Made by a program: the position numbers and the translations under genes
Shown here: positions 25,033 through 44,750 of the stretch, in pieces
Layout: each line of letters opens with the position of its first letter
Position numbering within the stretch: the stretch's first letter is position 1
The notes under the pieces: model-generated
Database searches by the model: none
What the model was told of the DNA's origin: nothing
Seen by the model: only the letters and a program-made list of their open reading frames with translations
Virus record (IMG/VR): IMGVR_UViG_3300045391_005020
From: a virus
Taxonomy: Duplodnaviria; Caudoviricetes
Direction: 5' to 3' (one strand)
Length of the DNA stretch: 64,000 bases

Positions 25033-26373
25033 TTAGACACGCAAGTCGTTACTTGCGGCAACAGCGGTTAGGACGGCTTCGTCCGCTCGGTTGCTTGGAT
25101 ATGCAGCGAAAGCCAGCTTGTAATGCAGATACAATCGCGAGAGCCCGAGATGCTCGGCGCGATCGATTGCGATCCCGGCCGACTTGACTGAATCGGCTGG
25201 TTTCATGATCGTGATGCGAACAATTCGAGCCCCGACCGGTTGCGCCTTCATCGACGCCTTCTCGTTCAGCTCGGACGCAGTATCTTCACCGAAGTCCAGA
25301 TTTGACACGTCGTTGTGTCCATCCAGTGAGGACATCTCGGGATCCTGTTCTTCCAGGAGTCCACTGAAGCCGCCCTGCACATCGGGTTCGCCGCACATGC
25401 AGGCCAACTTGGATTGGCCGACGATGATCTCGGTGAAATCCTGGAACGACAGCATGTGACCAGCGCGGTGAAGGGTGGTCAGCACCGCTTCAACTCCGTG
25501 CAAATCTGCTGCCTGCTTGATCTGTTTGACCGCGCGATCCGAAAGCTTCATCGGACCCGCGCCCGACACGGCCTTGCCGTGACCCGCGACGCGCTTCTCA
25601 ATTTCAGCCAACCGGACGAGGGTCGCCTTCTTGACCTGATCGTCGTCGAGCCCGTACGCCTCTGCCAATTCGTGGCCGCCAATCACGCCATTTTGTGACG
25701 CGACCTTGGCCAGCGCGTACCCGATCCTGTCGGCCGGCTTGTAGACCGTGCTGATGTCGAAGTACTTCGGGTTCGGATTCTGCATGTAGATCTGGCGACC
25801 GTCCGCCAGCACTTCACCCAGCTTGGTCTTGATGTGATCGCAGTGGTGGCGCGCGGTCGGGGCCTTATGGCCGCAATAGCTGCAAACGTCGTAGTCCTGC
25901 TTGGAACCCATCGAAACCGGAATGTCTTCACCCCGCGCGAACGCGTCGAGTTCTTCTGCGTACTTCGTGTTGTCGAGTGCGATCAGAAGTTCGATGCGGC
26001 GCATGTCCGGATTGTGGGCAGTCGCCAGCACTTCGCCGGTTTTCAGGATCGGCGAGTGGTTCTTGTGGTTCTTGAAAACGTGACCGTTTTCTTTGAATCC
26101 AGTATGGGCCGTGACATTGTCTTTTTCGCTGAAGCCGTCGCAGTTGCGGTTCGGGCCGTACGCTTCTTCGTCGCCGACCGCGAGCACGTGCAGAACCGAG
26201 TGGCCCTTCACGCCGCCTTCGTCGGCGATCTTCTGCAGAGTCTTGCTGAATAGTCCATCGGCCGCTCGCTTCTCGAGCCAGCCCGCGTCGACGCCGCGGC
26301 GATGCAGCGGAACCAACGCGACGTTAAGATCGTTGAAGTCGTACGAGTCGGTGAGGATCAGTTTGCGAATCAT
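25033..26373 (-). CDS. Prohead (capsid maturation) protease with Zn-finger insert
   Basis: PNRNCDGF...VFKNH...VSMGS...CSYCGH...CDHI...YFDISTVYKPAD motifs of assemblin/HK97-type phage proteases; synteny. Confidence 0.75.
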   Translation of the reverse strand: MIRKLILTDSYDFNDLNVALVPLHRRGVDAGWLEKRAADGLFSKTLQKIADEGGVKGHSVLHVLAVGDEEAYGPNRNCDGFSEKDNVTAHTGFKENGHVFKNHKNHSPILKTGEVLATAHNPDMRRIELLIALDNTKYAEELDAFARGEDIPVSMGSKQDYDVCSYCGHKAPTARHHCDHIKTKLGEVLADGRQIYMQNPNPKYFDISTVYKPADRIGYALAKVASQNGVIGGHELAEAYGLDDDQVKKATLVRLAEIEKRVAGHGKAVSGAGPMKLSDRAVKQIKQAADLHGVEAVLTTLHRAGHMLSFQDFTEIIVGQSKLACMCGEPDVQGGFSGLLEEQDPEMSSLDGHNDVSNLDFGEDTASELNEKASMKAQPVGARIVRITIMKPADSVKSAGIAIDRAEHLGLSRLYLHYKLAFAAYPSNRADEAVLTAVAASNDLRV

Positions 26374-27320
26374 GGGCGAGCGAGCTGTTCGGGCGGGAAG
26401 AATTTGTTGGCGGTGTACCCGAGCGCCGACCCGAGACCGAGCGATAGTCCCACACGGCCCTTGCTGGCAATCGGGTCGCGTGCAGCGCGAATGTCCGAGA
26501 AGCCCTTCTGGAGACGCGGGAGGGTTACATCAGAGCCGGTGCGCTTCTGCAGTTCTGCCTGAACTGCCGGGACGGTGTAGTCCCAGCCGCCGATGCGCTG
26601 CTTCGCGCCTGGGTTCTTGTTCGCCCAATCCAATGCCTTCAGCATCTGGTTGGTGTTCGGATTCTTGTAAGCCAGGTTCTTGGCCTGCGTGTACATCCGA
26701 TAGATAGCAGTCAGCGGGTCGAGACGCGCATTGCCGGTCATCGGATTTTCAGGCGTGCTGCCTGGCGCGTTGAGGTGATCCATGATCAACCTGCTGAGAT
26801 TCTCTTTACCACCGAGCGCGGTGTTGAGCTGACGGGCTGGCGCGACTGCAGGCGATTCGCCCGACGCCGGCGCGGTTGCGGTTGCGGCCTGCAGGGCGAC
26901 ATCATTCATGCCCTGCATGTTTCCGGTCATCTTCCGTGCCGAGTCGAAGAAATTCCGGACTAGCGGAAGTTTTGAAAGAAACGGAGCTGCGGTACCGGCG
27001 GAGAATCCGCCGAGACCAGCGAGATTTACCGGGCCATTTCTGGCCGCTTCGAGATTCGCTTCAGGAGTGCCCGGGGCCGGAGGCGGAGTAGTCTTGGGCA
27101 CGATGCCGGTAGCTTCCATCGCGGGACGCCAGTGCTTCCATCCGTAGTATCCGGCTGCACCAACGCCGCCCAGAATCCCGAGGGCCGCGAGCCACTTCTT
27201 CCAGTGCTCCTTCTTGGCCTGTTGGACTTCGGGATCGTTGTCGTTGTCGGTCGATTCGACGTCTTCGTCGAACATATCCGGCTGGATCACGTCTTCAGCG
27301 GCGAGCTTCTCGAAGGTCAC
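26370..27320 (-). CDS. Putative internal head/ejection protein with Gly-rich hydrophobic segments
   Basis: N-terminal FEKLAA; WLAALGILGGVGAAGYYGW; no Cys. Confidence 0.5.
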   Translation of the reverse strand: MTFEKLAAEDVIQPDMFDEDVESTDNDNDPEVQQAKKEHWKKWLAALGILGGVGAAGYYGWKHWRPAMEATGIVPKTTPPPAPGTPEANLEAARNGPVNLAGLGGFSAGTAAPFLSKLPLVRNFFDSARKMTGNMQGMNDVALQAATATAPASGESPAVAPARQLNTALGGKENLSRLIMDHLNAPGSTPENPMTGNARLDPLTAIYRMYTQAKNLAYKNPNTNQMLKALDWANKNPGAKQRIGGWDYTVPAVQAELQKRTGSDVTLPRLQKGFSDIRAARDPIASKGRVGLSLGLGSALGYTANKFFPPEQLARP

Positions 27321-29878: not shown

Positions 29879-32044
29879 TCAGCCCTGCATGGTGGCGTTG
29901 AGGCCGAGTCCGTAGAACTCGGGGTCGCCGGCCAGTGAGCGCTTCTTCATGAACAACACGAGCTCACCCAGGGACTCGAACGAGGCCTTGAGGTCGTCGG
30001 TGAATTCAACCAGGTCTTCCTTGCCGTACCGTTCGGTGAACTCGTCGTAGTGCCAGTGCAGGAGGAACAGGAGGCGGCCCAGGCGGTCCATGCCCGAAAC
30101 GATCGTCGGGAGGAATCGCTCGACCATGTCGGTCGGGTTATGGGTCTTGATCAGCGAGCTCAGGACCGAGGCGTCGAACACTTCCTTCTGGCCGGTCTGA
30201 CTGGCGCGCTGGACGGCTTGGCTGGTCGACTCGGTGTCGGTGTCGCCGTCATCAGAGCCGCCGAACGGCGAGTGGTACTGGTAGAACGCGCGGTTGTCTT
30301 CGCTGGGCTCACGCTCGACCCCGTAGGACGGGAACTTGGTCGTGTGATGGTTCGACATCAACCCGCCCTCGGTCTCGTCGGTGACTTCCGGGAACGGCAG
30401 AAGATTGGCGGCGTACTTGACTCGGTACTCGGTCGGGGCGTCCGCTTCCTTGATCAGGATCTTGGCGTCGTGTGCGGACAAGCCGTGCCGGCGCATCAAG
30501 TAGCTGAGGGCACCGACTTTGGTATATGAGTCAGAACCGTCGAGGTCCTTAATCCCGATCTCGTCGTTCATCTTCCACACTTTGATCGGCGACGCGGTCT
30601 TCTCGAGCTCGGTCAGGATCGTGTTGTGGTCGCCGAAGTCGGAGTGGTGCAGCTGCGATTCCGAGATCGGAGTCTTGTACGAGTAATCTTTCTCAGTGAA
30701 CCGGTTCAGCACGATGGCGCGGAAGCGTCGCTCGTTGACGACCAACTTCTCGGCCAGGTACCGGATCTGACCAGAGCCAGCTTCGGTGACGACAATTTCG
30801 CGCACTCGTTGGTCCGGAGCGCCGTAACGCCACGGCGCCGGGCCATTCAGGACCGACCATGGATGATTGCGTCCGCACCAGTCGCGGGTGATGTAGTACG
30901 ATCCGCGGACCTTGAGGGTCTTGATCTCGTTCACGCCGTCGACCGAGCTGTCGATCTCGAATCCGAGCGTGGAATCGCCGGTCTGATTGCAGAACACCAC
31001 GCAGTCGCCCGGACGGACTTTATCGGGCGAAACCGATTCATCGTCCAGGAGCTTGCGGAAATCCGCGCCGTCGTGTTGGCGCAGCGTGTAGATATGGCGA
31101 GTCGAGACCATGCCGTGACGGCCGCTCGACGGCTCGTACACCAGCATCTGGTCAGCGTCTTCCGCTTTGGTGCCGCTGATGCGGAGAATCAGGCATTCCG
31201 CGATCGAACCGTCGGCCATCAGGACATCGTAGAGTCCGCCCTGGGTTGGGTTCTGGAGAACTTGCGGGACGGTCGTGCGGTACACGATCGACTTGTTCAT
31301 CTCGGGACGCTTATCGACGACGGCGGTTCCGCCCGTGATCAGCTCTTCCTTCTGGGCATCGGTCAAATCCTTCGCACCATCCTGAGCGACCGAGCTGATG
31401 ATCGTGATGTCGTCTTCCTTCTTCTCGGCCGTCTTGGTCGGCACGTAGAAATCGACCAGGTTGTAGAACTGTTCGACGTACGAGGCGAGCTTGGGAAATT
31501 TCTGCAGGTCGCCGATGAAGCCGCGCGCGACTTCGGGACCGAACGATGCGATCGCATCCGGGAGCGACGGCAGATCCGGCTCCATCGTCATGTCCTGCAT
31601 CGAGTGGATCGCTTCACCGCTCTTCTGGAGATTGAGTCCGCCCTGTCCGCCGCCCGGAGGCAGCTGGCGCAGCTTCGAATAGTTCGGCTGACGAACACCC
31701 CGTTCTTGCTTGGACTTGGTGTCGACTTCGCCGAGTTGATTCGGACGACGATTGATGATCTGGTTGACCCAGTCTTCGGTGAGCGGGACGAACAGGTCGG
31801 AGTCGACGCTGTACAGGGCATCGAGGCCCTTGATCTCGCCGTTCATGAAGAACACGGGAGCGTAGTGCCACCCGTCGCCGATCTCGAACCCGAAGATACC
31901 GACCGCTTTGGAACCGTCGTCGTTCGACTTCACCAGCTGGAAGCCGACCAGATAGTCCAGGAGTGCCGGCGACTTATCGCGCAGACGGGCATTGGCCAAG
32001 TCGCTAAAGGTTTGCTCGAGGGCTGTTTGGGCTGCTTCTGGCAT
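29879..32044 (-). CDS. Large putative internal head protein
   Basis: 721 aa; GGAG RBS; K-x-A motifs at apparent domain boundaries (TKTA, EKTA, VKYA). Confidence 0.55.
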   Translation of the reverse strand: MPEAAQTALEQTFSDLANARLRDKSPALLDYLVGFQLVKSNDDGSKAVGIFGFEIGDGWHYAPVFFMNGEIKGLDALYSVDSDLFVPLTEDWVNQIINRRPNQLGEVDTKSKQERGVRQPNYSKLRQLPPGGGQGGLNLQKSGEAIHSMQDMTMEPDLPSLPDAIASFGPEVARGFIGDLQKFPKLASYVEQFYNLVDFYVPTKTAEKKEDDITIISSVAQDGAKDLTDAQKEELITGGTAVVDKRPEMNKSIVYRTTVPQVLQNPTQGGLYDVLMADGSIAECLILRISGTKAEDADQMLVYEPSSGRHGMVSTRHIYTLRQHDGADFRKLLDDESVSPDKVRPGDCVVFCNQTGDSTLGFEIDSSVDGVNEIKTLKVRGSYYITRDWCGRNHPWSVLNGPAPWRYGAPDQRVREIVVTEAGSGQIRYLAEKLVVNERRFRAIVLNRFTEKDYSYKTPISESQLHHSDFGDHNTILTELEKTASPIKVWKMNDEIGIKDLDGSDSYTKVGALSYLMRRHGLSAHDAKILIKEADAPTEYRVKYAANLLPFPEVTDETEGGLMSNHHTTKFPSYGVEREPSEDNRAFYQYHSPFGGSDDGDTDTESTSQAVQRASQTGQKEVFDASVLSSLIKTHNPTDMVERFLPTIVSGMDRLGRLLFLLHWHYDEFTERYGKEDLVEFTDDLKASFESLGELVLFMKKRSLAGDPEFYGLGLNATMQG

Positions 32045-32111: not shown

Positions 32112-34016
32112 TTAGGGCGTCCCGGGCGGCTTCTTTCCGTAGTGGCCGGTTTGAGCCAGGCTGTCGCCGAAGTTGACGCCGCGGGCCAGCGCCGGCACGA
32201 ACGAGGTGCTGTTGGGGTCGGATTCGGCGCCACGCGCGACCGACTTCTGGAACGCACTGGTGGTGTAGAAGCCGGCCAGCTGGGTCTGCCAATCCGGATC
32301 CTCGTGGACGCCCAGTAGGCCGCGCTGCATGTGCGGAGCAAACCCCGGTGCTTCCTCGTGGGTGTGGACGTCCTTGATTCCGTAGCGATGCAAGTGGTCC
32401 GCGATCTTGCGGGTCACGCGAGTCCCGACCGTGTAATGGAGCGCTGGCTCTTCCAGGTAGCGCCCGATGGCCTGCTTTGGTGGCGCCAACGTCGCAGTTG
32501 GGCGCGGCTTATACGCATGGGTGAGCTGGTTATGCGACACGACGTCGTCAACCACGTGGTCGCCGATTCCTTCGTGGTCGGTGACCTTCGCCCAATTCAT
32601 GAGTCCGGCCACGACTGCTTCCAGGTTGCGCCGGTGCGTCGAAATACCGGAGTTGTCCAAGGCCTCCTTGAGGAGGTTGGTGTAGACCCGGCGGGCCTCG
32701 CCGAGGCCGCGATGGTGCACGAGATCGATCGGGTGCGGGACGCCGTCCGTCAGGTCGTCGCCTTCGTCGACCGTGTCGCCCGGTTTGACCGTCGGGTTCA
32801 GGCCGTCGTGCACGTACAGCTTGTGGTCACCAAGCTCGATGTAGTGGCCGCCCTGCGGGGCCTTCTCGACCGACTTGATCTGACCGGCCTGCGGGGCCAG
32901 CGGGCCAGCTTCCGGGAATGACTCAGGAGCCTGAATGAGTCGGTTCAGGTATTCGAATCCGTTGCGGTTGATTTTCTCGGTACCGGTCACACCCGAGGTG
33001 TGCTTGGAATTGAGCATGCCCTGGCTGAGCTTCTCGCCGATCGACTGCGCCGCTGCGATCCCGATGTTGTCACCAATCTTGGAGAGGCCGAAGCGGTCGC
33101 GCCGACCGGCAGCGAAGCGGGAGATCCCGCCGTCCGGCGTCGATTCTGTCAGGGGCGAGTGGATCAGGATTTCGTCGACGCCTTTGCTGTCGAGGTCCTT
33201 GAGCATGTGTGAAGTGAGCGTCGTTCCGGCCGCGAGGACTTTGTCCGTGCCAGGAATCGTGATCGGCGCGGCCAAGACGGCGCCGGCGTTGTCACGGTCT
33301 TTCGGGTGCACCGGAAGCCCGACAGGAAGGCGAGTAGCGTCTGGAGCGTCCTTGGTGACGACGAGTCTGTGCGCCGCGTTGACGAGCTGCTTATTTAGAA
33401 ATCCCGCGTCGCCGACAGCGAACTTCGTGCCGATCATACCGCGACGCTGACCGTACAGACCCGCGAAATATTCGACCGGATCCAGGCCTTGCGCGTAACT
33501 ACGCCAAATCGGGACCGGGATGACTTTGCCGGTGTGGTCGCTGGTCAAGAGATCCGCGCCGCGTAGCGAGTTGTAGTCCGACTTCTTGCCGCGGGCTCCG
33601 CTGATGAGCTGCAAGTAGAATGGATTGTTTTCCTGCTTGGCCTCTTCGAACAACGCGTTCTGGAGATCCTGGCCGAGCGGCAGCAGGGTATTCACCACTG
33701 CGTCGTCTTTCTTGTCGGCCGGAATCCGATCGTCGTCGACGATCTGCTGAATCTTCTGCTTCGCCGCCGCGAGCAGCTTTTCCTTCGCGGGCGAAGTCCG
33801 GAGCGACTTCAGGTCCACCGATGTGCCTTCGTCCCACGCGCTCGAGCGCCCAATGTCGTTGAGCTTCTTCAGCACGTCCTTGTAGCGGTCCGGGTAGCGT
33901 TCTGCTACCTCGCGCATCAGCTCCTGCACACCCTTCGAATCAAGAACACGATCTTCGTTCCGGAGATCTTCCGGAAGCGCGTCGTTGAGCAGGAGTCGGC
34001 CAACGCTGGTATCCAT
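32112..34016 (-). CDS. rpoC: Phage RNA polymerase beta' subunit, C-terminal half (RpoC2-like)
   Basis: TSVGRLLLN, SGARG, bridge helix GLDPVEYFAGLYGQRRGMIGTKFAVGDAGFLNKQL, trigger loop GDNIGIAAAQSIGEKLSQGMLNSKH. Start reassigned to ATG 34016. Confidence 0.9.
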   Translation of the reverse strand: MDTSVGRLLLNDALPEDLRNEDRVLDSKGVQELMREVAERYPDRYKDVLKKLNDIGRSSAWDEGTSVDLKSLRTSPAKEKLLAAAKQKIQQIVDDDRIPADKKDDAVVNTLLPLGQDLQNALFEEAKQENNPFYLQLISGARGKKSDYNSLRGADLLTSDHTGKVIPVPIWRSYAQGLDPVEYFAGLYGQRRGMIGTKFAVGDAGFLNKQLVNAAHRLVVTKDAPDATRLPVGLPVHPKDRDNAGAVLAAPITIPGTDKVLAAGTTLTSHMLKDLDSKGVDEILIHSPLTESTPDGGISRFAAGRRDRFGLSKIGDNIGIAAAQSIGEKLSQGMLNSKHTSGVTGTEKINRNGFEYLNRLIQAPESFPEAGPLAPQAGQIKSVEKAPQGGHYIELGDHKLYVHDGLNPTVKPGDTVDEGDDLTDGVPHPIDLVHHRGLGEARRVYTNLLKEALDNSGISTHRRNLEAVVAGLMNWAKVTDHEGIGDHVVDDVVSHNQLTHAYKPRPTATLAPPKQAIGRYLEEPALHYTVGTRVTRKIADHLHRYGIKDVHTHEEAPGFAPHMQRGLLGVHEDPDWQTQLAGFYTTSAFQKSVARGAESDPNSTSFVPALARGVNFGDSLAQTGHYGKKPPGTP

Positions 34017-34024
34017 CGCGGCCC

Positions 34025-34234
34025 TTACTGTTTGTTGATGATCTGAACCTGCGCGGCCGTGATTCCGAGCTCGCGGCACTGTTGCGCGAAATCTGGCTGA
34101 GCGGCATCGCTCGCAACGATCATCCGTTCATGCTCGTACGCGAGCGCGGCCGGAGTTCCGGCCTCGGTATAGACCACGACTTGGCTGACCGGGATCGTGT
34201 ACGCCCGGCCGTCTTTCACGAACCGGATGAACAT
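34025..34234 (-). CDS. Small hypothetical protein between the RNAP genes
   Basis: 69 aa, tightly packed with both neighbours. Confidence 0.6.
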   Translation of the reverse strand: MFIRFVKDGRAYTIPVSQVVVYTEAGTPAALAYEHERMIVASDAAQPDFAQQCRELGITAAQVQIINKQ

Positions 34235-34864
34235 TTACTCGCCTTTGAGAATGCGATTCAGAACTTCGGCAGCGGCGCCGAGTTTCAGTGGACCGCCTTG
34301 CGCGATCGCTGACATGTCGCCGGGCTGGCCCGAGACGGGGCCGGGCATCGAGGCCGGATCAACCGGCGCAGCCGCGGCTGCGCCGCCAGCGCCTGCCGGC
34401 GGCTGGTTCTTCTTGTTCTTTCCGACAGCGGTGAGGGTGCGTTCCACGATATCCATCACGACGCGAGCTTGACCGTGGTTCACGGCGGCGTTCGGGTCGA
34501 TCGGAGCTTCCGGCTCCGGAGCCGGCTGAGCCGCCTGAGCGGCAGCAGTGGGATCGATCGGTGCACCAGTCGAGGGGTCGATCGGGGCGCCTGCGGCCGG
34601 ATCGCTCGGGGCACCGGCGGACGGATCGGCCGGAGCCGCAGCGGCTGCGGGATCCGCCGGAGCTGCGCCGGCAGCGGCCGGATCACCAGCGAGTTGAGCC
34701 ATCGCGTCCATCGGGGCACCGCCGGCAGCAGCCGGATCTGCCGGAGCCGAGGGAGCGCCAGCCTGAGCGGGGCCGCCAACCGGCATACCGTCCGGACCAG
34801 CTTGCTGCTGATCGGGTTGGGCGGGGATGAAGGCGCGCTTGAGGAGACGTTCGTTGAAGCTCAT
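34235..34864 (-). CDS. Pro/Ala-rich low-complexity internal protein
   Basis: N-terminal LLKRA; repeated (A/I)DPAAAG units also found in the scaffold. Confidence 0.55.
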   Translation of the reverse strand: MSFNERLLKRAFIPAQPDQQQAGPDGMPVGGPAQAGAPSAPADPAAAGGAPMDAMAQLAGDPAAAGAAPADPAAAAAPADPSAGAPSDPAAGAPIDPSTGAPIDPTAAAQAAQPAPEPEAPIDPNAAVNHGQARVVMDIVERTLTAVGKNKKNQPPAGAGGAAAAAPVDPASMPGPVSGQPGDMSAIAQGGPLKLGAAAEVLNRILKGE

Positions 34865-34872
34865 AACTCGTG

Positions 34873-34900
34873 ATCTTAGACCGTAACAATAGACCTACAA
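34873..34900 (-). promoter_or_regulatory. Sigma70-like promoter for 34864 and beta'-C
   Basis: TTGTAG-16-TAAGAT, with CTATTGTTAC half-box in the spacer. Confidence 0.45.
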
Positions 34901-34906
34901 GGTAGG

Positions 34907-37900
34907 TTACGGGTGTAAAATTTTGACTGGGTCGCGGACCGAGATCTCGCCGCGTTTGTAGGCCTTGAGGACATCTTCCTTGGTCGCGAACACCCTGGTC
35001 TGCCGGGCTTTGTCGGGCTGGCTAGCCAGGTACAGGCCGGCCAAGTATTCCTGGCTCGGCAACAGGTGGACGTCGAACGAGGCCGGGTGCAGCAAGTTCT
35101 TGGAGGGCAACAGCTTCTCTTTCGCCTCGTCGACGGCCTTGTCGGAAACCGGGAGGTGGACGTTGATGGCGTCGCCGTCGAAGTCGGCGTTCATGCCCTT
35201 CGTGACCGACTGCGAGATCGAGATGCTGGAGTCCTTATTGATCCGGGCGTGGCCGGCGACGTAGTTGAAACGGTGGAGCGACGGCGCGCGGTTGTAGATA
35301 ACCGGTCGGACCTTCATTTCGGCGTCCAGGTGGTGCTTCGCCGCGGGGGTGCGATCCCGAACGGCCTTCACGGCTTCGGCGGCCGGCGTGCCTTCACGAA
35401 CCAAGCGGCGGATCACGAACGGCCGGAACATCCGCCACGCCATATCTTCTGGGATCCCGACCTGGTCCATGTCGAGCTCGGGATCGATCGTGATGACCGA
35501 GCGACCAATGGTGTCGACCGAGTTACCCAGCACCTTGCGCTGGAACCGACTGTACTTGGGCGAATCCTTGACCCCGATCGCGAACCGGAGCATGCCGCGC
35601 ACGCCCTGTTCGGCCGTCTTGGGATTCACCGGATCCGTGAGGCCAGCGACCGCTTTGGCGGCGTTGTACATGGTCAGGTATTCGTCGCCGTTCTCGCCGA
35701 GTTCTTCACCGGCGCCCTGATAGTTCTTGGCTGACTCCATCAGGTCTTTGTAGAGGTAGTTGGCGTCGTGGATCATGTCGACCCCGCGGGCACGCATAAT
35801 CGGGCGATGCTTCGGAGGCAGGACCGCCATCTTGGAGATCATCAGGTCTTCCGGTTTTACCCCTTGGGTCTTGAGTCCCTGGAGGTACCCGAGACGCCGG
35901 ACCGCGTCATCGCGGTTTGACCGCGATGCAGTTCGGACCTGTTGCTTTGCGAGCTCGATCTCACGATCGACGTTGATGGTCTTGAGCGCGTCCTCGATCG
36001 CTTGCGGGCCCGACTTGCCATTGATCTGTTCTTTGCCAGCCAGGATCTGCTCGAACTTCTTGCCGGTGAGTCCGAGGATGCGCGTGATCGGCTCCTCAGC
36101 CATTGGGTTTGGGATCTTGGCTGGCAGCACGATCTTGCTGAAGCGTGTGCCTTCGGCGCCTCCGGTTTTTCCGAGATCGAACAGACCGCCTTCGACCGGC
36201 TTCATGGTGTTGAAGTCGAACGTGTCGGGCTTCGAGATCTCGTGTTGGGCCAGACGATCCACGTCGGCGTCGGTCATGAAGCCGAGCTGCTGACGACCGT
36301 CCGGCTTGTCCTTGATGTTGACGCCGGCCGAGCGGAGGAGATCGAGGAAGTGACCGTTGGCGAACGATTTACCCTGCTGGGCCGGTGTCTGACCTGTTTT
36401 GAGCTGGCGCCAGAAATCGTCGTTACGCTGACCGCGAACCAGTTTCGCATCCTTGAGGAACTCGGTGGCACCGGCGCTCAGAAGGGAGTGGATGTCGAGG
36501 AGCCCAATTCGCTTCGAACCGTCGGGGCCGCCGCGCGCCGGCGACTCGTCTGCCGAATAGCCGCCTGTGTCGCGTGCCGACATTTTCGACTCAGCAGTAT
36601 GGTGGAGCTTCAGGATGTACTGGTTGCCCGTGAAGACGTTCGGGATCCGGCGGCCGTTCCGCGGATCACGCAACGTTTCCGTCTCTTTGACGCCGTGTTT
36701 GTGGGCTTCATTCAGGGCGAAGTCCGCGAGCCCTTCGGGAGTCGAGAAGGACTTCAGGTTGTAGGGTTGTCCGCGCTTCTCGGCTATCTTGCCGAGCAAA
36801 GTGGTGACCAGGCTGGACGGATTAACGCGCGTGATAATACCAGTCGGGGCCATCAGGACGTCCATCGGGCGACCGTCCTCGTCGTGCGGCATCTGATCGT
36901 CCGGGATGATCTTCGAGACCACGCCCTTGTTACCGTACTGTCCGGAGAGCTTGGATCCGACCGACATTGGCTCGTACGATTTGACCGTGACCTTTACGCC
37001 TGAACGGGTACGGGCCACATCGGTCACCACGCCTGGCTGCGGGTGATCCCACACTTGGCTGATGTCCGTGTAGAGCGACTTCGGCCCGTTGGTGAGCGCG
37101 CCTTGTGCGCGGCCCTGACGTTTCCCGATCGCGACCATGACCGGATCGCCTGGATTTATAGTCTGACCGACTTGGACGGTGCCGCTTTCGTCGAGCTTGT
37201 CGTATTGAGCCTTCGAGAACCGATCGCCGTAGATCGCGCGGTAGTCGTTGGTCTTGGTCGAGTGGACTTCATCGCCGAGATCGAGCGAGTGCTTGTACTG
37301 ATGTTCGCTCGACAGCTTCTTCGCGGCCGATTCAGAGATAGCGACCGAGTCGTCGTAGGTCAGACCTTCGCCAGCCAGGTAAGCAACACGGAGATTTCGG
37401 CCAGGTGCCGCATGACCATTTCGATCAGTGAAGTTCGAGTGAGCCAGCAGCTGACCCGGCTGCACCACGTCGCCAGCCTGGACGACCGGTGTGTTGTGGA
37501 GCATGGTTTTGCGCGCGAGCGGGTAGTGGTTGTAGAGCTCATAATGCTTCTGCTGACCGCCCTCATGGAGGACGTCGATTCCATCCGGTGTCACCTTCAC
37601 GACGCGGCCCGGCGCTTCCGAGTGCACCGCGCCGGCGTGGCTGCCCATCTGCTGGTAGAACGATTTGCCTTCGTGGTCGAGCGGATGGACGAGCGGCGCC
37701 TCCGCATCTTTGAGAGGAAGCGCCTGAGTGGTCATACGCGCACCCATTAGGAGACGCTGTGATTTCACGCCTTCGAGGAGGGGGACCATGTTGGACGCGC
37801 GGCTAAACAGGTGGGTCGCATCCGGGAGTTCGTACTTCACCTTCGAGCGGTCGATGTACTGGATCTTGTGCCCGACCATCGCACGAACTTTGCGTTCGCC

Positions 37901-39313
37901 CTTTGCGAGCTCGCCCGGGAAAGCGATCGCGTGGTTCGCCATCTGGCGCGCCGACAGCGTCTCGAGTTTACCGGTCGCGGGATCGCGGAGCGTTGTGTAC
38001 AGCTGACCGTCTGAGCCCTTGAGGGCCGCGTCGGTAACGCGCATGTCGAGGCCGATGTTCGATGACTCCGGGGCGCGCACGCCATCGATGATGCCGAAGT
38101 AACTCGGCTGCACGCCTCGCGCGTCACGCGAGACAGATTGGGTGGAGCTGATTCCGCCCTCGCCCAGGCGCGTGATTGCCTGACGCTGATCGTAGGTCTC
38201 GAACGGGTTGATGTCTTCGACCGCCGAACTGAGTCCGGTGCGGTACAGTGCGTGTACATTCGGGGTCAGGATGCCGGAACGGAGCTTGTCGAGCTTGCCC
38301 GATTTCGCCGCACCCCAAAGGAGCTTGCGCATCTCGCCAGCCTGGTCGCGCTCGAGACGTTCACGGATCAGATCCTCGGCCGAGTGGACCGACTGGAACG
38401 CTTGCGAGTCGCGGTTGTCGCCCTCTTCCTGGTTGTTCGCGACGCGCAGAATTTTCTGCGTCGCCTTCGTGAGCGCGTCGAGTCCTGGGCGATCGTGCTG
38501 ACCGCCGAGCGTGAGCTCACTGACTTCCGGATCGATGCGGGCGCGGTCCAGAATGGTCTGCAGGGCTTTCGGGAGTTCGTGATCGGGAGCTTCGCGCTCA
38601 GCTTGGCGGCCGAGCTTCTGGACAACCTTGCGGAGATCCTGCTGATCGTGACCGCTGACTTCGCGCCAGTTCTGTTTGAACAGCTGTTCGCCCCAAGCCT
38701 GCTTGAGATCTTCGTCTTTGACCCCCAGCGCTTTCAGGAGTGGATACAGACGCGTCTTTGACTGTTCGACCTGGAGGTTGAACACACCAGTTTCGGGATC
38801 CAGGTTGACGCGGAATCCGCGACCAGTGCCGGGCTTCACGTTCACGTGCGCCTCGACGCCGCCATTCTGCTGACGCCGCACGTACACGCCCGGACGCAAC
38901 CGGGCCTGATTCCTGATCGAATAAGGAACACCGTTGTGAATGAAGAGACCGCGCGAGTTCAGGTGCGGCACGTGGGCCAGCACCGCGTTCTGTTCATCCA
39001 GGACCTGGTTGGTCTTGTTGTCGACGAGTCGGATCCGTCCCTTGATCGCGCGCTGGAGACGGCCGCCTTCCAGGAGAGCTTTCTTTTCGTCAGCACGAGT
39101 CGGATTGTAGTCGCCGTCGTAGTCGGCATTCACCAGTTCGATCCGGTGCGTGTCGTTCTGGATCGGAAAACGTGTTCGAACGCCCTCGAGGGCGTTGTCG
39201 TAGATGGCTTGGCGCTGGCCAGCGACGTCGTCAAAGCGACGAAGCGTGACGGGCTTAGGCGGCGTTACCGGCTTAGGCGCGGCGCCGGATAGGGCATCAA
39301 GAAAGTCGGCCAT
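34907..39313 (-). CDS. rpoB-rpoC: Phage RNA polymerase beta subunit fused to beta' N-terminal catalytic half
   Basis: Beta motifs: APESSNIGL, RLLMGARMTTQALPL, TYDDSVAISE, GSKLSGQYGNKGVVSKI, ILKLHH, GSKRIG, LLRSAGVNI. Then in frame, beta' motifs: GGLFD, VLPPKHRP, RFQRKVLGNSVDTIGRSVI, NRAPSLHR, NADFDGD (35171-35191). Confidence 0.95.
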   Translation of the reverse strand: MADFLDALSGAAPKPVTPPKPVTLRRFDDVAGQRQAIYDNALEGVRTRFPIQNDTHRIELVNADYDGDYNPTRADEKKALLEGGRLQRAIKGRIRLVDNKTNQVLDEQNAVLAHVPHLNSRGLFIHNGVPYSIRNQARLRPGVYVRRQQNGGVEAHVNVKPGTGRGFRVNLDPETGVFNLQVEQSKTRLYPLLKALGVKDEDLKQAWGEQLFKQNWREVSGHDQQDLRKVVQKLGRQAEREAPDHELPKALQTILDRARIDPEVSELTLGGQHDRPGLDALTKATQKILRVANNQEEGDNRDSQAFQSVHSAEDLIRERLERDQAGEMRKLLWGAAKSGKLDKLRSGILTPNVHALYRTGLSSAVEDINPFETYDQRQAITRLGEGGISSTQSVSRDARGVQPSYFGIIDGVRAPESSNIGLDMRVTDAALKGSDGQLYTTLRDPATGKLETLSARQMANHAIAFPGELAKGERKVRAMVGHKIQYIDRSKVKYELPDATHLFSRASNMVPLLEGVKSQRLLMGARMTTQALPLKDAEAPLVHPLDHEGKSFYQQMGSHAGAVHSEAPGRVVKVTPDGIDVLHEGGQQKHYELYNHYPLARKTMLHNTPVVQAGDVVQPGQLLAHSNFTDRNGHAAPGRNLRVAYLAGEGLTYDDSVAISESAAKKLSSEHQYKHSLDLGDEVHSTKTNDYRAIYGDRFSKAQYDKLDESGTVQVGQTINPGDPVMVAIGKRQGRAQGALTNGPKSLYTDISQVWDHPQPGVVTDVARTRSGVKVTVKSYEPMSVGSKLSGQYGNKGVVSKIIPDDQMPHDEDGRPMDVLMAPTGIITRVNPSSLVTTLLGKIAEKRGQPYNLKSFSTPEGLADFALNEAHKHGVKETETLRDPRNGRRIPNVFTGNQYILKLHHTAESKMSARDTGGYSADESPARGGPDGSKRIGLLDIHSLLSAGATEFLKDAKLVRGQRNDDFWRQLKTGQTPAQQGKSFANGHFLDLLRSAGVNIKDKPDGRQQLGFMTDADVDRLAQHEISKPDTFDFNTMKPVEGGLFDLGKTGGAEGTRFSKIVLPAKIPNPMAEEPITRILGLTGKKFEQILAGKEQINGKSGPQAIEDALKTINVDREIELAKQQVRTASRSNRDDAVRRLGYLQGLKTQGVKPEDLMISKMAVLPPKHRPIMRARGVDMIHDANYLYKDLMESAKNYQGAGEELGENGDEYLTMYNAAKAVAGLTDPVNPKTAEQGVRGMLRFAIGVKDSPKYSRFQRKVLGNSVDTIGRSVITIDPELDMDQVGIPEDMAWRMFRPFVIRRLVREGTPAAEAVKAVRDRTPAAKHHLDAEMKVRPVIYNRAPSLHRFNYVAGHARINKDSSISISQSVTKGMNADFDGDAINVHLPVSDKAVDEAKEKLLPSKNLLHPASFDVHLLPSQEYLAGLYLASQPDKARQTRVFATKEDVLKAYKRGEISVRDPVKILHP

Positions 39314-40202
39314 CGAGCCGAGCTTTCAGGTTCGCCCCCAGGGCGGCAGCTTTCGCGAGTGGCTGGGCCGCGGCGATGGGATCCGGTTCAGTCGGCTTTG
39401 GGGCGACCGGTTTGTCGACCACGATCGGTTCGAGTTCCGCATCGGCCGGTTGGACCGCGCGGTTGTTGTAGAACTTCTTGATCGCAGTGGCGGCCTGGCG
39501 GTATTTGTTAGCCTTGTCCGACTTCCGGTATGCACGAATCGCCATGATGGTGCCGAGTAGCGCGACCGGAATTCCGATCGGGGCAATCATGTTGGTGCCG
39601 GCTTCTAGCGCGCCCTTGGCGGCGTCGCCAACCGCATTCCGGAGACCCATGCCGGCGTTCGTGAGAGTACGGTTGATTGGACCCAGGATCGAATCTCCGA
39701 GTCCGGCGTTCTTCGCGAAGTAATGATCTTCAGCGGCCTTCATTTGCGCGTGGAGCGCGATGTCAGTCATGTCCGGCTTGTCGCTCAGGAGTTTCTGGAC
39801 GCGATTGCGCGCGTGATCCAAACGCTTCTTTGCCAGTTCGCGGCGCTGATTGTCGAAGTAGGCGTCGAGACCCTTCCAGCCCGCGTACGCGCCGCCAGCC
39901 AAGAGTCCGCCCGTCAGGATGTTGTCCATTAGACCCGTGATGGCAGCGGCCTTCACGTGTCGAACCTTTTGGCCCTGGGCTTCGAGCTGCGCAGCTTCCT
40001 CGGGCGAGAGTTCGACCGGCATCTTGACGCTCGGACGTTCGATCTTCGGGAGATCGACAGGCGGACGGTAGTCCTTGCCCTTCGCAAGCTCGATGAGGCG
40101 CTTGACCGCGCGGGTGCCGATTCCGGCCCCGACCCCCAACAGACCGGCGCCGAGGATGTCGCCTCGGTCCATGTTGAAAAAGTCTGCGGTCTTCTGGGTC
40201 AT
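39297..40202 (-). CDS. Putative internal/ejection protein with Gly-rich hydrophobic helices
   Basis: N-terminal QKTA; three Gly-rich hydrophobic segments separated by K-x-A; no Cys. Confidence 0.55.
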   Translation of the reverse strand: MTQKTADFFNMDRGDILGAGLLGVGAGIGTRAVKRLIELAKGKDYRPPVDLPKIERPSVKMPVELSPEEAAQLEAQGQKVRHVKAAAITGLMDNILTGGLLAGGAYAGWKGLDAYFDNQRRELAKKRLDHARNRVQKLLSDKPDMTDIALHAQMKAAEDHYFAKNAGLGDSILGPINRTLTNAGMGLRNAVGDAAKGALEAGTNMIAPIGIPVALLGTIMAIRAYRKSDKANKYRQAATAIKKFYNNRAVQPADAELEPIVVDKPVAPKPTEPDPIAAAQPLAKAAALGANLKARLDGRLS

Positions 40203-40519
40203 TGCTCTACTTTATAACTCTTGGTCGCCCATCGCAATAAAGTGACATAGCGGTTATTTTTGGAGTCCCAGTCCGGGCCGTTCTTCTCGCAGAACACCGC
40301 GGAGCCGTCGCAGATCTGCTGCCAAACCGCCTCGCATTCCTTCATCTGCTTCTCGTCCGAGAGGTCGAACAGGCGGTAGTGGGCCGTCCAGATCTCCTGC
40401 GGCTTCTTGCTCTTGGGATCGTTCGGGTGGATCAGCGGTATTTCGGGACCGTTGATCTCGACCAGCTTGGGAGCCTGGTACCGGACCGTTTCCATCTTGT
40501 CGGGAATCTTGACCTGCAT
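40199..40519 (-). CDS. Hypothetical protein
   Basis: 106 aa; stop overlaps the next ATG. Confidence 0.6.
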   Translation of the reverse strand: MQVKIPDKMETVRYQAPKLVEINGPEIPLIHPNDPKSKKPQEIWTAHYRLFDLSDEKQMKECEAVWQQICDGSAVFCEKNGPDWDSKNNRYVTLLRWATKSYKVEQ

Positions 40520-40545: not shown

Positions 40546-41205
40546 TTAGGCTTTGAGACGACGCTTATCCAGGATCAATTTGAGAGCGCGGGCGCGGCGC
40601 TGGGATTCGAGGCGATCGCCGGCCTGTTCGAGCTCGCGCTGCTCGAGCAGCATGTTGGTCACATCTTGGTCAGTCTGGTCCATGCCAGCCATCTGGTTCG
40701 CCAGCACGCCGGTGTTGGTCGCCAGGGTGTTGCCGAGGCCGATGCCGGCGTTGATCGGGGCACCGATGACGTCGTGGAGGTTGGCGACCAGGGTCGCCTT
40801 TTTGGAGAACAGGCCCTTCTGGACCGCGCCCTTGGCGAAGCCGTACCGGAACGCGTCGCGACGCTCCTGCTCTGTGTTGTCGCTGCCAGACTTACGCATC
40901 TCGAGTACTCCCGTGTTCATCAAGGTTCCCAAGCCCATTCCGAGGTTCCGGAACGTGGACAGGGTGCCCTGACTCACACCAAACATTTTGCCCATCAGGG
41001 TGCCGACCCCATAGCCGATTCCGGCCCCGACCGCGCCTTTGACCACATCAGCGAGACCGATGGTGCGCTTGTCGGGTGTGTTCGCCTCGTTCTGGAGGGC
41101 GGACATCGCCTTCGCCTTCCCCCACAGACTGAGGGACGGGTCGGCCATGATGTCCTTCTCAGCTTTCTGGAGCGAGAAGCGCGCGACTGCGGAATCGATG
41201 CTCAT
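40546..41205 (-). CDS. Putative internal/ejection protein (glycine-zipper-like)
   Basis: GAVGAGIGYGVGTLMG; ERRDAFRYGFAKGA motif; no Cys. Confidence 0.55.
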   Translation of the reverse strand: MSIDSAVARFSLQKAEKDIMADPSLSLWGKAKAMSALQNEANTPDKRTIGLADVVKGAVGAGIGYGVGTLMGKMFGVSQGTLSTFRNLGMGLGTLMNTGVLEMRKSGSDNTEQERRDAFRYGFAKGAVQKGLFSKKATLVANLHDVIGAPINAGIGLGNTLATNTGVLANQMAGMDQTDQDVTNMLLEQRELEQAGDRLESQRRARALKLILDKRRLKA

Positions 41206-42116
41206 TGAAGTTTACTCTGCACCCAACCCCAGGCGGTATTGAGCGGATCAGTATAGCCATTGGTCGGCGCTGCGGCCGGAGCGGGCTGGGCCGCCGGGGC
41301 GGGCTGAGCTCCCGGCATCTGGATCCCGAAATGTCCGAGCACGGCCGCGGTTGGGTTCTCGTTGAACTTCTGGACCGCGGCGTCGCCGAATTGCTTCTTG
41401 AGGTCAACGAATCCGCTCGAGCCCACCATCTGGAGTCCCGAAAGGACTGGCGCCCATTTCTTGTCTTCCTCGGGTGACGTCTTTCCTGCGCTGTAACGAG
41501 GAAGGAACTCGGAAAATTCCGGGCTCTTGGCAGCGCTGATGAGCTCGTACGCCTGCTTGCCGCCAAACGCGGTGGCGAGCAACCCGACAATCTGGCCGAG
41601 CCGGTTTCCGGATAGCATGCCGATGATCCCGAGCGGAATCATCAGGAGCGACGGATTGCCCTTCAGCATGTCCATGAATCCGCCGGCACCCTGTTCCTTC
41701 ATGCGTTTCATCGCATCGTCGTGAACTTGCTCACCCTTCTTGCGGGCTTGCTGCTGGAGCCAGTTTTCCTGAGCCGGTTGTTCGGGCTTCGGGGCTTGTT
41801 CCGGTTTCGTGGTCAGATCCGGTTTCGGAGCTTCGCCGGTCGGAGCCGGAGCCGGGGGCTTCTGGGGAGCCGGAGCGGGGGCCGGCGCCGGTGCGGCTGT
41901 GTTCGGAGTTGCCGCCGCTGTGTTCGGAGTTGCCGCCGCTGTGTTCGGAGCTGGGGGCGGAGTGTTCGGAGTTGTTGCCTGCGGCTTGATCGGCTGGACG
42001 GTCACCGGCGACGGAGTCGTGGGCGCGGGTGGCGTCAGGATGGGGCCGTCCTTCGCAACCTTGGTCTGACCACGGGCGCGCTGGAGGGCTTCGATTGCGA
42101 GGTTACGGGTGGACAT
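41202..42116 (-). CDS. Putative internal/ejection protein, Pro-rich with hydrophobic hairpin
   Basis: TKVA after an N-terminal leader; LLMIPLGIIGMLSG...IVGLLATAFGG; no Cys. Confidence 0.55.
   Translation of the reverse strand: MSTRNLAIEALQRARGQTKVAKDGPILTPPAPTTPSPVTVQPIKPQATTPNTPPPAPNTAAATPNTAAATPNTAAPAPAPAPAPQKPPAPAPTGEAPKPDLTTKPEQAPKPEQPAQENWLQQQARKKGEQVHDDAMKRMKEQGAGGFMDMLKGNPSLLMIPLGIIGMLSGNRLGQIVGLLATAFGGKQAYELISAAKSPEFSEFLPRYSAGKTSPEEDKKWAPVLSGLQMVGSSGFVDLKKQFGDAAVQKFNENPTAAVLGHFGIQMPGAQPAPAAQPAPAAAPTNGYTDPLNTAWGWVQSKLQ
41896..41950. repeat. 21-bp coding tandem repeat (~2.6 copies; PNTAAAT)
   Basis: GCTGTGTTCGGAGTTGCCGCC repeated directly. Confidence 0.85.
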
Positions 42117-44418
42117 TCGGGGTGCCGATGGGCTGTACTGGTTTTACCGGTGCGGTGGCCGGATGACCAGCCTGAACGGGCGCCAGGGCCGGTTTGGGCG
42201 CTTGCGGCGCGACCGGAGTAGCCGGTTTCGCCGGCTTGTCGGGAGCCCAGGTGTAGTTGGGAACCCGTCCTGTGCGGTCATATTTGCCCCACAGGTAATC
42301 CTGAATTGGGCCGCCAGCTTTGGTCGCTTCTTCCTGGGTTGCAGGGTGGAACGATTCGTAGAGCTGCTTGCCGACCGCGCCTTCAGGGTCGCGAACCAAG
42401 TCAGTCCCAAAGTGTTGATCACGATAGTTCAGCGCCTGTTCGACGCTGTTGTCCCAGTCCTGCCTGGTGGCTTTCTGGACGTCGTACGTGGGAACCTTGG
42501 TTAGCCCTTCGACAGCCTTGTGAACTTGGTCGCCGTACACCGGTGAACCGCTTTCGATCCCGAGTTGGTCGAGCGTCTGACGCGCCGCAATTTCCGCGCG
42601 TTGCTTGGCGTACTCGGCCTTTCGGTCCTCGGGCAGGTAACGATAGACGGGGTGCTGTTCCAGCATCTTCATCATCTGCTGATAACCAGCTTCTTGGGCC
42701 TGATTGATCGCGATGGTTCGCATCGCGGCCCGGTATGCGTCGGCATTGTTCGAGCCTTCGTTCGCTGTGCCGTATCGTCCGAGCAACGCGCCTTGACCAG
42801 TTGCATCGCGGCGGCCCTGATCAGCACCTGTGACGGCCTTGGCAGATTCCGTTCCCACACCGAGGAACGGCGCGACGCCAGACCACAGCGTACGACCGAC
42901 TCCGGTCGGCTGGCCTTCGGTTTCGAGGACGCGGTTGTAGACGCGGCGCCACTGCTCGTCTCGCACCGGGTCGGTGCCGTTGATCGCCATGCTGCCCAGC
43001 TCGCCGAGCGATTGAGCACCGGAAGCGAGTGTACCGATAATGGCCGTGTTCCGGAGCGCGTTCACGGCCTTTCCTGCGCCAGTGACTGCGGGCGCGACCG
43101 GGCCGATCAATCTACCTGGTAGGGTACGTGAGATGTTCGCGTTGATCGGATTCGTTAAGCCGCTCCATGGTAGCTTGAGACTGTTGACGGTACCGCGGAG
43201 TCCGCGCTGCAGCAAATTGCCGGACGGAGAGAGGGATTCGGTCGTCATTCCGGTCGGAGAGAGCCGACGCAGGAATTCTCCCGTGCCCATAAATTGTCCG
43301 ACCATCGACGCCGAGTTGTTGGCGTCATTGAGCAAAGCGAGTTGTCGCTCCGGTTTGGAGAAGTCGTGATTCTTGAGTCCTTCCCAGGTATCGGCCGCCA
43401 GGGGCAACATGGTCGCAGCAGTCGTGCCCCAGGCGCCGAACCCTTTCGGATTCAAACGATATGGGATGCTCGACGCCACATTACTCGGAACCTGGGACAG
43501 GCTCAGGATCTCGCGGCGCGCAGTGTCGTTTCCGACTACGTTCTGCGGCTGCGTGGCATGGAAGGATTTCAGTTCTTGCCCAACGCTCTGAGCTTCGGGT
43601 GAGTCAGGGCCGTGCTCGGCAACCATCTTTTGATAATTCGCCTGCAGTTCTGCCAGACGTGAATTGCTCTGCAGGCTAGCTGCGTCTTCGGGTTGCAGCT
43701 CACTCGAGTTCCGGTTTGGCAGACGTGCAGCGACGATTGGAGTTACGTTAGATGCAGCGGCGTTGATGGCGCCGCGTGCTAGGCCAGCAAAACGTCCAAC
43801 CCCAGGAATCATGTTGGCAAGTCCGGCTCCGATCGCGGTTACTGGAGCGTCGGTCAGACGGCCGGCGATCGTAGCATTTTCGGCAGAGGGGCTGGATCCC
43901 TGAAGGTGCGCTTGATCGGCGGCGGGTTGGTAGCCGCTTCGACGCAGAACGTGTTCTTGGTTGATCTCGTTGCTGAGATCACGCGCACGCGTGTTCGCCA
44001 GACCGCCGTGACCCTCGGCGGCGCGCGTGTCGGACTCCATCCGGTTCTGCGCCCACGACTTCATGTTCGGATCCGACATGTAGAGCTTGGTCGATTTGAG
44101 AAGCTCGCCTTCGAGTTGCGCTGGATCCAAATCCGACCAGTCGCGATTATTCGCGAGGTAGCTGAGGGTCCACTGGGCCAATGGATCTTTGGTCTTCTGG
44201 AGTGCGGCCTGGAGGGCGGCCTCCATGGACGGGTCGATCGCAAGCTTCTCGAGCGCGTCGACGTACGAACGAGCCCAAGCGACTTTCTGTTTATCGAAGT
44301 CGATCTTGTTCTGCTTGTGCTCTTCGGTGCCCGCGAGATTGACGGTCGGGTAGTGATCCTTCTTGCCGCGCAAATGGAACGAGCGCGGCCGAGTGACCCG
44401 AATGGCCTTCTTGGCCAC
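42103..44418 (-). CDS. Large putative internal/ejection protein
   Basis: 771 aa, Gly/Ala-rich amphipathic; leader ends at DALEKLA; no Cys. Confidence 0.55.
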   Translation of the reverse strand: MAKKAIRVTRPRSFHLRGKKDHYPTVNLAGTEEHKQNKIDFDKQKVAWARSYVDALEKLAIDPSMEAALQAALQKTKDPLAQWTLSYLANNRDWSDLDPAQLEGELLKSTKLYMSDPNMKSWAQNRMESDTRAAEGHGGLANTRARDLSNEINQEHVLRRSGYQPAADQAHLQGSSPSAENATIAGRLTDAPVTAIGAGLANMIPGVGRFAGLARGAINAAASNVTPIVAARLPNRNSSELQPEDAASLQSNSRLAELQANYQKMVAEHGPDSPEAQSVGQELKSFHATQPQNVVGNDTARREILSLSQVPSNVASSIPYRLNPKGFGAWGTTAATMLPLAADTWEGLKNHDFSKPERQLALLNDANNSASMVGQFMGTGEFLRRLSPTGMTTESLSPSGNLLQRGLRGTVNSLKLPWSGLTNPINANISRTLPGRLIGPVAPAVTGAGKAVNALRNTAIIGTLASGAQSLGELGSMAINGTDPVRDEQWRRVYNRVLETEGQPTGVGRTLWSGVAPFLGVGTESAKAVTGADQGRRDATGQGALLGRYGTANEGSNNADAYRAAMRTIAINQAQEAGYQQMMKMLEQHPVYRYLPEDRKAEYAKQRAEIAARQTLDQLGIESGSPVYGDQVHKAVEGLTKVPTYDVQKATRQDWDNSVEQALNYRDQHFGTDLVRDPEGAVGKQLYESFHPATQEEATKAGGPIQDYLWGKYDRTGRVPNYTWAPDKPAKPATPVAPQAPKPALAPVQAGHPATAPVKPVQPIGTPNVHP

Positions 44419-44420
44419 GA

Positions 44421-44750
44421 TTACGCCAGACGCGGTTGCGGCTTCTGCTTCTTACGCAGCAGGTGGGAGAGAAGGAGACCGGCGCCAAGGCCGGCGGCGC
44501 CGATGCCCGCCATCTGGTGCGAGGTGTCCCACTTGCGCGGGTCAAGGCTGTTGAAGCCCTTCATGTAGTTGACGCCTTGATCGACGTACGGCTTGGCCGC
44601 GTCGAGGGCCTGATGCCCGAGGGCCAGGCCCTTGTCGGTCATGCTCGGCTCAACCGCCGGAGCCGGGGCAGGCGCTGCGGCCGGAACAGGAGCCGGGATT
44701 TCGGCATGCTTGGTCAGCAGAGTGGACAGGACTTTACGTGCATCGGCCAT
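44421..44750 (-). CDS. Small putative internal protein with C-terminal hydrophobic helix
   Basis: TKHA; MAGIGAAGLGAGLLLSHLLRKK. Confidence 0.55.
   Translation of the reverse strand: MADARKVLSTLLTKHAEIPAPVPAAAPAPAPAVEPSMTDKGLALGHQALDAAKPYVDQGVNYMKGFNSLDPRKWDTSHQMAGIGAAGLGAGLLLSHLLRKKQKPQPRLA

Follow-up and report, generated by a model that had tools for sequence, protein, structure and literature searches.

A cysteine-free multisubunit RNA polymerase lacking both beta' zinc sites in the head module of a large soil and groundwater phage

The stretch of DNA analysed here, referred to as the window, comprises 64,000 nucleotides (nt) of a virus of the class Caudoviricetes (IMG/VR record IMGVR_UViG_3300045391_005020), and this work concerns the multisubunit RNA polymerase (RNAP) that it encodes at positions 32112-39313. 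The window corresponds to the reverse strand of a 148.6-kilobase (kb) IMG/VR viral contig, estimated to be ~74% complete, and its minus strand carries nearly all genes. A search of sequencing runs, which listed DNA runs and no RNA run, found near-identical DNA in soil and groundwater metagenomes, and a megablast search of the region against phage records returned no match. Four genes occupy the 32112-39313 span: an RNAP beta subunit fused to the N-terminal half of beta', a gene for a 209-amino-acid (aa) protein, a 69-aa gene, and the C-terminal half of beta' (hereafter beta'C). The fusion (34907-39313, minus strand; 1468 aa) matches the Pfam families Rpb2_6 (PF00562, E 1.7e-45), Rpb2_3 (PF04565, E 1e-4), Rpb1_1 and Rpb1_2, and is 31.7% identical to gp206 of Salmonella phage Arash, the closest isolate, across 97% of its length. 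The beta'C gene (32112-34016, minus strand) matches Rpb1_5 (E 6e-15); read from the ATG at 34016 its product has 634 aa and is identical to the database protein P0006, and a GTG at 34079 was rejected as the start. With the Salmonella beta and beta' subunits as alignment reference, whose numbering is the same as in E. coli, the bridge-helix and trigger-loop segments of beta'C align with beta', and the catalytic motif NADFDGD is intact at residues 1375-1381 of the fusion (35171-35191, minus strand). The contig yielded a single RNAP set, and a single RNAP location was likewise found in Arash. Judged by these matches, the enzyme is a bacterial-type multisubunit RNAP of a ~200-kb soil and groundwater phage, with its catalytic motifs intact.

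Neither RNAP chain contains cysteine (Cys), as an earlier note on this DNA, made from the sequence alone, had stated: translation gives 0 Cys in 2,102 aa. The same note had proposed to compare this count with the genome background and with homologs, and the comparison bears it out, since 12-22 Cys are expected in the two chains and the homologs are close to Cys-free. The upper figure follows from the 0.95% Cys of the phage proteome (22 expected, P(0) ~3e-10) and the lower one from the 0.56% of the downstream late region (12 expected, P(0) ~7e-6). In the RNAP genes the coding frame contains no TGY triplet, against 100 in the other two frames, and 418 RNAP codons lie one substitution away from Cys. 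Chance is thus excluded as the cause of the missing Cys. A recoded genetic code was considered as well and was rejected because the other genes of the contig use TGY normally.

Both zinc sites of beta' have disappeared together with their ligands. The segment that holds C70, C72, C85 and C88 in the Salmonella protein is deleted and the gap is bridged by GGLFDLGKTGGAEGTRFSKI, so that window 36131-36190 (minus strand) is the scar of the N-terminal zinc-binding domain. At the second zinc site, C814 is replaced by Ala within VVTKDAPD (33339-33362, minus strand), and C888, C895 and C898 are replaced by Glu, Ser and Ala (33105-33161, minus strand). In beta, C559 of E. coli, the Cys of the GRVCP motif, corresponds to Asp in GIIDGV (38078-38095, minus strand). 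The earlier note had read the deletion and these substitutions from the letters, and the alignment with Salmonella upholds them. The four-Cys N-terminal zinc domain of beta' is reported to occur in all multisubunit RNAPs except the non-virion enzyme of AR9 (PMC7618050), which is the one precedent for its absence. It is missing too from Arash, from Vibrio phage D69 and from all fusion homologs, a distribution by which its loss is ancestral to the whole family and not particular to the window enzyme.

The absence of Cys extends far beyond this phage. The beta'C chain matched 4,293 cluster representatives at E<=1e-3, including 990 at E<=1e-30. No Cys is present in 85 of 86 intein-free beta'C homologs (49-100% identity), and the intein-free beta'C homologs that lack the second zinc site (n=91) contain 1 Cys in 56,752 aa. 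Among intein-free homologs of the fusion (42-72% identity), 68 of 76 have 0 Cys, with a total of 10 Cys in 111,934 aa. Strong purifying selection maintains the Cys-free state of the mature enzyme in hundreds of relatives. Two fusion homologs, P0355 and P0362, have a precomputed match to the SET domain (PF00856) inside the polymerase; P0355 has 1 Cys in 1,976 aa.

Inteins are found in about a third of the family members (beta'C and fusion homologs, P0022-P0261 and P0266-P0381). They carry LAGLIDADG or Hint domains, and some proteins have two or three of them. In beta'C they occupy at least five insertion sites, several of which lie in the bridge-helix and trigger-loop region. When intein boundaries were taken from the ends of BLAST segments, hmmalign having misplaced them, all of the ~85 beta'C inteins with resolved boundaries (98 insertions) had Cys as first residue and Ser just after the intein; the spliced beta'C proteins therefore remain Cys-free. 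In one relative of ~40% identity (L020:1774-8264), beta and beta'N are separate genes with a 102-aa gene between them. Its beta ends in an intein N-fragment starting CFVGD, and its beta'N opens with an intein C-fragment whose last residues are VVVSN; Ser is the next residue. This looks like a natural split intein that would rebuild beta-beta'N by trans-splicing, at about residue 933 of the window fusion. Moreover, in a subclade near 40% identity (P0133-P0263), beta'C bears C-terminal extensions of 250-1,145 aa that are rich in Pro, Gln, Gly and Ala and contain only 16 Cys in 44,158 aa. BLAST found no match between these extensions and the genes of the window phage. By analogy with the terminal domains of the N4 virion RNAP, they may have a role in packaging or ejection.

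In a tree of 226 beta'C sequences with Salmonella as the root, the sequences that lack the second zinc site all fall into a single 214-leaf clade (support 1.0). Two intein-bearing sequences, P0211 and P0251, at first counted as exceptions, had been misaligned; their aligned parts contain four Cys. Basal to the 214-leaf clade are Arash, D69 and several metagenomic lineages, each with exactly four Cys in beta'C, all of them ligands. The second zinc site was thus apparently lost once, at the base of this clade. The basal lineages retain ligand Cys only and lack the N-terminal domain; the loss of that domain and the purge of non-ligand Cys would therefore have come first, and the replacement of the four ligands later. 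The earlier note had held that homologs keeping Cys and zinc sites in the same gene context would speak against its view. The picture is mixed: Arash, D69 and L021, the three zinc-site-keeping lineages in which the neighbouring genes could be read, do keep the second site and a common downstream gene order, and the N-terminal domain is lost there too.

The position of the RNAP genes points to the virus particle. They lie among late and structural genes, between the portal and the head protease and in the same direction as the structural genes, and this order is common to Arash and D69. The head module of the window is syntenic with the Arash type (portal, RNAP, gp218-like gene, protease). As in the window, Arash and the Vibrio phages D69, D148 and D181 encode a beta-beta'N fusion and a separate beta'C beside the portal, with the N-terminal zinc domain deleted. 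The split and fusion points are the same, as is the position of the chain break, the beta'C match has E 2e-39, the fusion identity with Arash and D69 is 30-32% over 97%, and non-ligand Cys is almost wholly absent in these two phages. Unlike the window phage, Arash and D69 still have the second zinc site with all four Cys. They have one small gene between portal and RNAP, whereas the window phage has six, and a helicase gene follows beta'C in Arash where the window phage has the gp218-like gene.

Arash, a contractile-tailed phage, has been studied by mass spectrometry of its particles, in which the fusion gp206 was the most abundant protein (3,516 spectra) and beta'C (gp216) gave 1,210 spectra (PMC10585845). 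Several further abundant proteins of the Arash particle have little or no Cys: gp4 (0 of 1097 residues), the helicase gp217 (0 of 472), the sigma factor gp10 (0 of 234) and gp218 (1 of 615). The Arash terminase has 13 Cys in 532 residues, and the other Arash helicases have 5-9 each. The gp217 helicase gene (L002:23091-24509), directly after beta'C, gave 1,148 spectra in the particle proteome, and for two of the other helicases detection relied on just 2 unique peptides each. The gp217 helicase may be a co-packaged partner of the RNAP; no homolog of it was found in the window. On the ~74%-complete contig, no Pfam families of sheath or baseplate were found.

The contig also encodes a sigma-like protein without Cys (G000:C1:128358-129233) that is homologous to Arash gp10 (E 8e-12). 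It surfaced through a protein search with gp10; its match to Sigma70_r4 is weak and below threshold, and a Pfam search of the contig for Sigma70_r2 found nothing.

The avoidance of Cys is not confined to the polymerase. From the portal gene, which is not counted, to beta'C, ten genes together encode 4 Cys in 4,211 residues, with 24-44 expected, and all four reside in the 106-aa protein (3) and the 69-aa protein (1). The upstream edge of this block is the portal homolog itself (44776-46623, minus strand; 615 aa, 8 Cys), recognised by tblastn against Arash gp204 (E 5e-55) and D69 (E 1e-63). Four relatives (L005-L008; 50-66% identity, G+C 49-62%) were compared over the block. In L005, L007 and L008 nearly all genes from portal to beta'C have 0 Cys, and the exceptions are small (68-178 aa) with 1-2 Cys each. 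The first gene after the block encodes a 721-aa homolog of the Arash "structural protein" gp218 (29879-32044, minus strand; 4 Cys; found by tblastn), whose orthologs in the relatives have 5-11 Cys, giving 4-11 with the window phage included; the genes next downstream of the block in the relatives have 4-12 Cys. The head maturation protease (25033-26373, minus strand; 446 aa, 6 Cys; PHROG 18299 E 4e-10, D69 homolog E 9e-38) has 6-12 Cys across the same phages. Portal, protease and terminase-type enzymes stand outside the avoidance. Other large proteins of the contig, mostly unannotated, also have ordinary Cys contents (for example 14 in 622, 11 in 807 and 13 in 814 residues). In L005, a gene for Endonuclease VII with 8 Cys (L005:11975-12625) lies between beta'C and the gp218-like gene and is probably a mobile element.

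Within the block, the first gene after the portal encodes a 109-aa protein with 0 Cys and a Gly/Ala-rich hydrophobic tail (44421-44750, minus strand), which has no PHROG or Pfam match. It is followed by a low-complexity protein of 771 aa with 0 Cys and no recognised family (42103-44418, minus strand); the proteins at the orthologous positions of L005 and L008 lack Cys as well. A protein-atlas look-up of this protein returned only unnamed viral clusters, under the reliable score, and it may be a packaged or ejection protein. A 304-aa protein with 0 Cys (41202-42116, minus strand) is rich in Pro and Ala in its N-terminal half and contains a hydrophobic segment resembling a glycine zipper; its L005 and L008 counterparts are Cys-free too. 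The next protein (40546-41205, minus strand; 219 aa, 0 Cys) has glycine-zipper-like segments too; at its position, with orthology judged by position only, the L005 and L007 proteins have 0 Cys and a 178-aa protein of L008 has 1. The 106-aa protein with 3 Cys (40199-40519, minus strand) is the exception inside the block, and the relatives have there a gene of 105-119 aa with 1-2 Cys. The last gene upstream of the RNAP encodes a 301-aa protein with 0 Cys and two hydrophobic Gly-rich segments (39297-40202, minus strand); its end overlaps the start of the RNAP fusion by 17 nt, and no Cys occurs in its counterparts from L005, L006, L007 and L008. Between the two beta' halves lie the 209-aa protein, Pro/Ala-rich, of low complexity and with 0 Cys (34235-34864, minus strand), whose place is taken in L005 and L008 by genes for Cys-free proteins of 197-200 aa and in L006 and L007 by larger Cys-poor genes, and, directly upstream of beta'C, the conserved 69-aa gene with 1 Cys (34025-34234, minus strand), which has orthologs of 68-73 aa in L005-L008. 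The Cys-free neighbours share low complexity, Pro/Ala-rich stretches and glycine-zipper-like hydrophobic segments, and PHROG and Pfam scans matched them to no family.

A similar suppression of Cys has been described for N4-like phages, in which the virion RNAP has 0.00075% Cys and its operon partners 0.0055% and none, compared with 0.865% for the proteome, and passage through the disulfide-forming periplasm was given as the rationale (PMC11445570). The ejection operon of Schitoviridae (N4 gp50; DEV gp71, gp72 and gp73) resembles the window block in being a late, Cys-suppressed set of genes that includes an RNAP and is delivered into the host, as is proposed for the window block. The N4-like enzyme is a single-subunit, T7-like protein of ~3,400-3,500 aa from short-tailed phages, unlike the window enzyme, which has the beta/beta' fold; the T7-like core and gp72/gp73-like partners that mark Schitoviridae do not appear here, and of the marks of that operon Cys suppression alone is common to both. 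The likeness is an analogy and not membership, because the N4-like enzyme has no homology to the two-barrel beta/beta' enzyme. In the crAss-like Cellulophaga phage phi14:2, the adjacent proteins gp65, gp66 and gp67, which include the RNAP, contain 4 Cys among 5,398 aa, compared with 0.25-0.5% for capsid, portal and terminase. They are giant virion proteins, and like the window block they form a run of adjacent, strongly Cys-suppressed proteins that includes the RNAP; the phi14:2 polymerase is nevertheless a single-chain and highly divergent two-barrel enzyme, missed by standard beta/beta' profiles (PMC7481178). We found no paper that notes the Cys-free and zinc-site-free state of the present RNAP family. 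A paper on RNAP-encoding Caudovirales mentions neither zinc nor cysteine nor virions.

Taken together, we think it probable that the enzyme is made late and delivered by the virion, that it was selected to contain no oxidisable thiols, and that its last zinc site was lost later in a single event. The RNAP would be packed into the head, probably together with its Cys-free neighbours and the sigma-like factor, would be delivered with the DNA and would transcribe the early genes. Thiols and Cys-based zinc sites would have been removed because such a cargo has to remain active when it has been stored in an oxidising particle outside the cell; in addition, it may have to pass unfolded through the tail and the cell envelope, where disulfide-forming enzymes act. 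Selection would first have purged all non-ligand Cys, a state still present in Arash and D69, and one later lineage including the window phage would then also have replaced the four zinc ligands. The earlier note had gone further and proposed that the polymerase was selected to be packaged, unfolded, passed through tail or envelope and refolded without zinc. Its packaging part finds support in the position within the head module, in the Arash proteome and in the precedents of N4-like phages and phi14:2; unfolding, tail passage and zinc-free refolding may belong to the process. Its zinc part does not hold as a need of packaging: the loss of zinc sites is not required, because the packaged relative Arash keeps one.

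Several points weigh against virion delivery as the explanation. The virion RNAP of phiKZ (gp80, gp149, gp178 and gp180) has 16 Cys in 2,614 aa (0.61%), compared with 33 in 2,850 aa (1.16%) for the phiKZ non-virion RNAP. The phiKZ enzyme is the one packaged multisubunit RNAP that has been well studied. Virion RNAPs of jumbo phages such as phiKZ and AR9 are bacterial-type split beta/beta' homologs encoded among late genes; they are packaged and carry out early transcription (PMC7598289). The phage phiKZ differs from the window phage in having a second, non-virion RNAP set, in keeping those Cys, in its subunit splits and in lacking a beta-beta'N fusion. Since the phiKZ virion enzyme keeps its Cys, a Cys-free state is not generally expected of an ejected virion enzyme, as the earlier note had supposed, and Cys loss in ejected enzymes is a tendency and not a law. 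Arash, the only relative with experimental data, is ~30% identical and keeps the second zinc site, and its preparation yielded 116 "virion" proteins including ribonucleotide reductase (PMC10585845), so that contamination is possible. That the Cys-free neighbours are cargo is a guess, because they belong to no recognisable family. The Lys-x-Ala motif, a putative signal for the head protease, shows no enrichment in either the RNAP or the block; it belongs on this list but is evidence neither way.

Other explanations accept or dispense with packaging. The RNAP may be packaged and the selective agent may be long storage in an oxidising soil or groundwater particle rather than unfolding and periplasmic transit. 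Oxidation of thiols and zinc thiolates would inactivate an enzyme needed immediately on entry, the phage comes from soil and groundwater metagenomes, the contractile-tailed Arash (PMC10585845) shows the same purge of non-ligand Cys, and the packaging evidence fits equally well. Nevertheless, the major capsid candidate, the portal and the protease keep Cys in all relatives and the phiKZ virion RNAP tolerates its 16, and we consider storage as the sole agent rather unlikely, although storage-driven and transit-driven selection are not separable from sequence. Less probable still is that the RNAP is no virion protein in this clade and that its Cys and zinc sites disappeared because of conditions inside the cell, for example to resist host defences that react with thiols or chelate metals, or to function in an unusual redox setting. 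It is true that the direct virion evidence comes from Arash, which lies outside the clade and has a very inclusive particle proteome, and that the Cys-free neighbours are uncharacterised; but the RNAP gene lies inside the head module and is oriented like the structural genes, only one RNAP set was found, and large, mostly unannotated proteins upstream of the portal have ordinary Cys (14 in 622, 11 in 807, and 5 in 416 residues of an exonuclease-family protein). A general cytoplasmic pressure is unlikely because other large contig proteins have ordinary Cys content.

Neutral reductive evolution, in which dispensable zinc modules decayed and a low Cys content drifted to zero, might be argued from the AR9 non-virion RNAP, which also lacks the N-terminal zinc domain (PMC7618050), and from the generally Cys-poor structural regions of phages (0.56% here). 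Yet a ~100-fold suppression of Cys has been kept over more than 200 lineages diverged to ~40% identity, against 418 mutational routes to Cys per genome; the basal lineages retained no Cys other than the four ligands, and the suppression reaches into the extensions and the neighbouring genes. This explanation is strongly disfavoured, and we regard it as highly improbable.

Virion delivery of the RNAP allows a broader and more tentative idea. The block from portal to beta'C, together with the sigma-like factor, could form an unrecognised protein-delivery package in which a thiol-free, zinc-independent holoenzyme and membrane-active helpers are threaded in with the DNA; we see this as possible but doubtful. 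To our knowledge, the two beta' zinc sites are regarded as near-universal structural features. If the idea of such a package is correct, this would be the first multisubunit RNAP to fold and work without structural zinc, and family-wide Cys suppression might serve as a genomic marker for ejected phage proteins, convergent in at least three unrelated RNAP types. The large, diverse and evidently functional clade without thiols or either zinc site would offer a natural zinc-free and oxidation-proof RNAP for studies of folding and assembly. Moreover, the ordered history of losses is visible in living lineages, so that Arash, which keeps its zinc site, allows a direct comparison with the clade in which that site is gone. 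Most genes of ~200-kb phages of this type are unannotated, and the Cys-suppression signature, which is independent in N4-like, crAss-like and beta/beta'-type RNAP modules, could flag packaged or ejected proteins from sequence.

Two further observations concern other genes of the contig. Next to the portal gene, a 917-aa protein with 3 Cys (47606-50359, minus strand) has NUDIX and HAD-hydrolase domains, a weak holin-like match at its N-terminus and a weak portal-family match. Four further Cys-free proteins of 316-763 aa are encoded in the late region, two in the window (16631-18724 and 26370-27320, both minus strand) and two elsewhere on the contig (G000:C1:123554-125845 and G000:C1:133638-135347), and the protein at the position of the 316-aa one is Cys-free in all four relatives examined.

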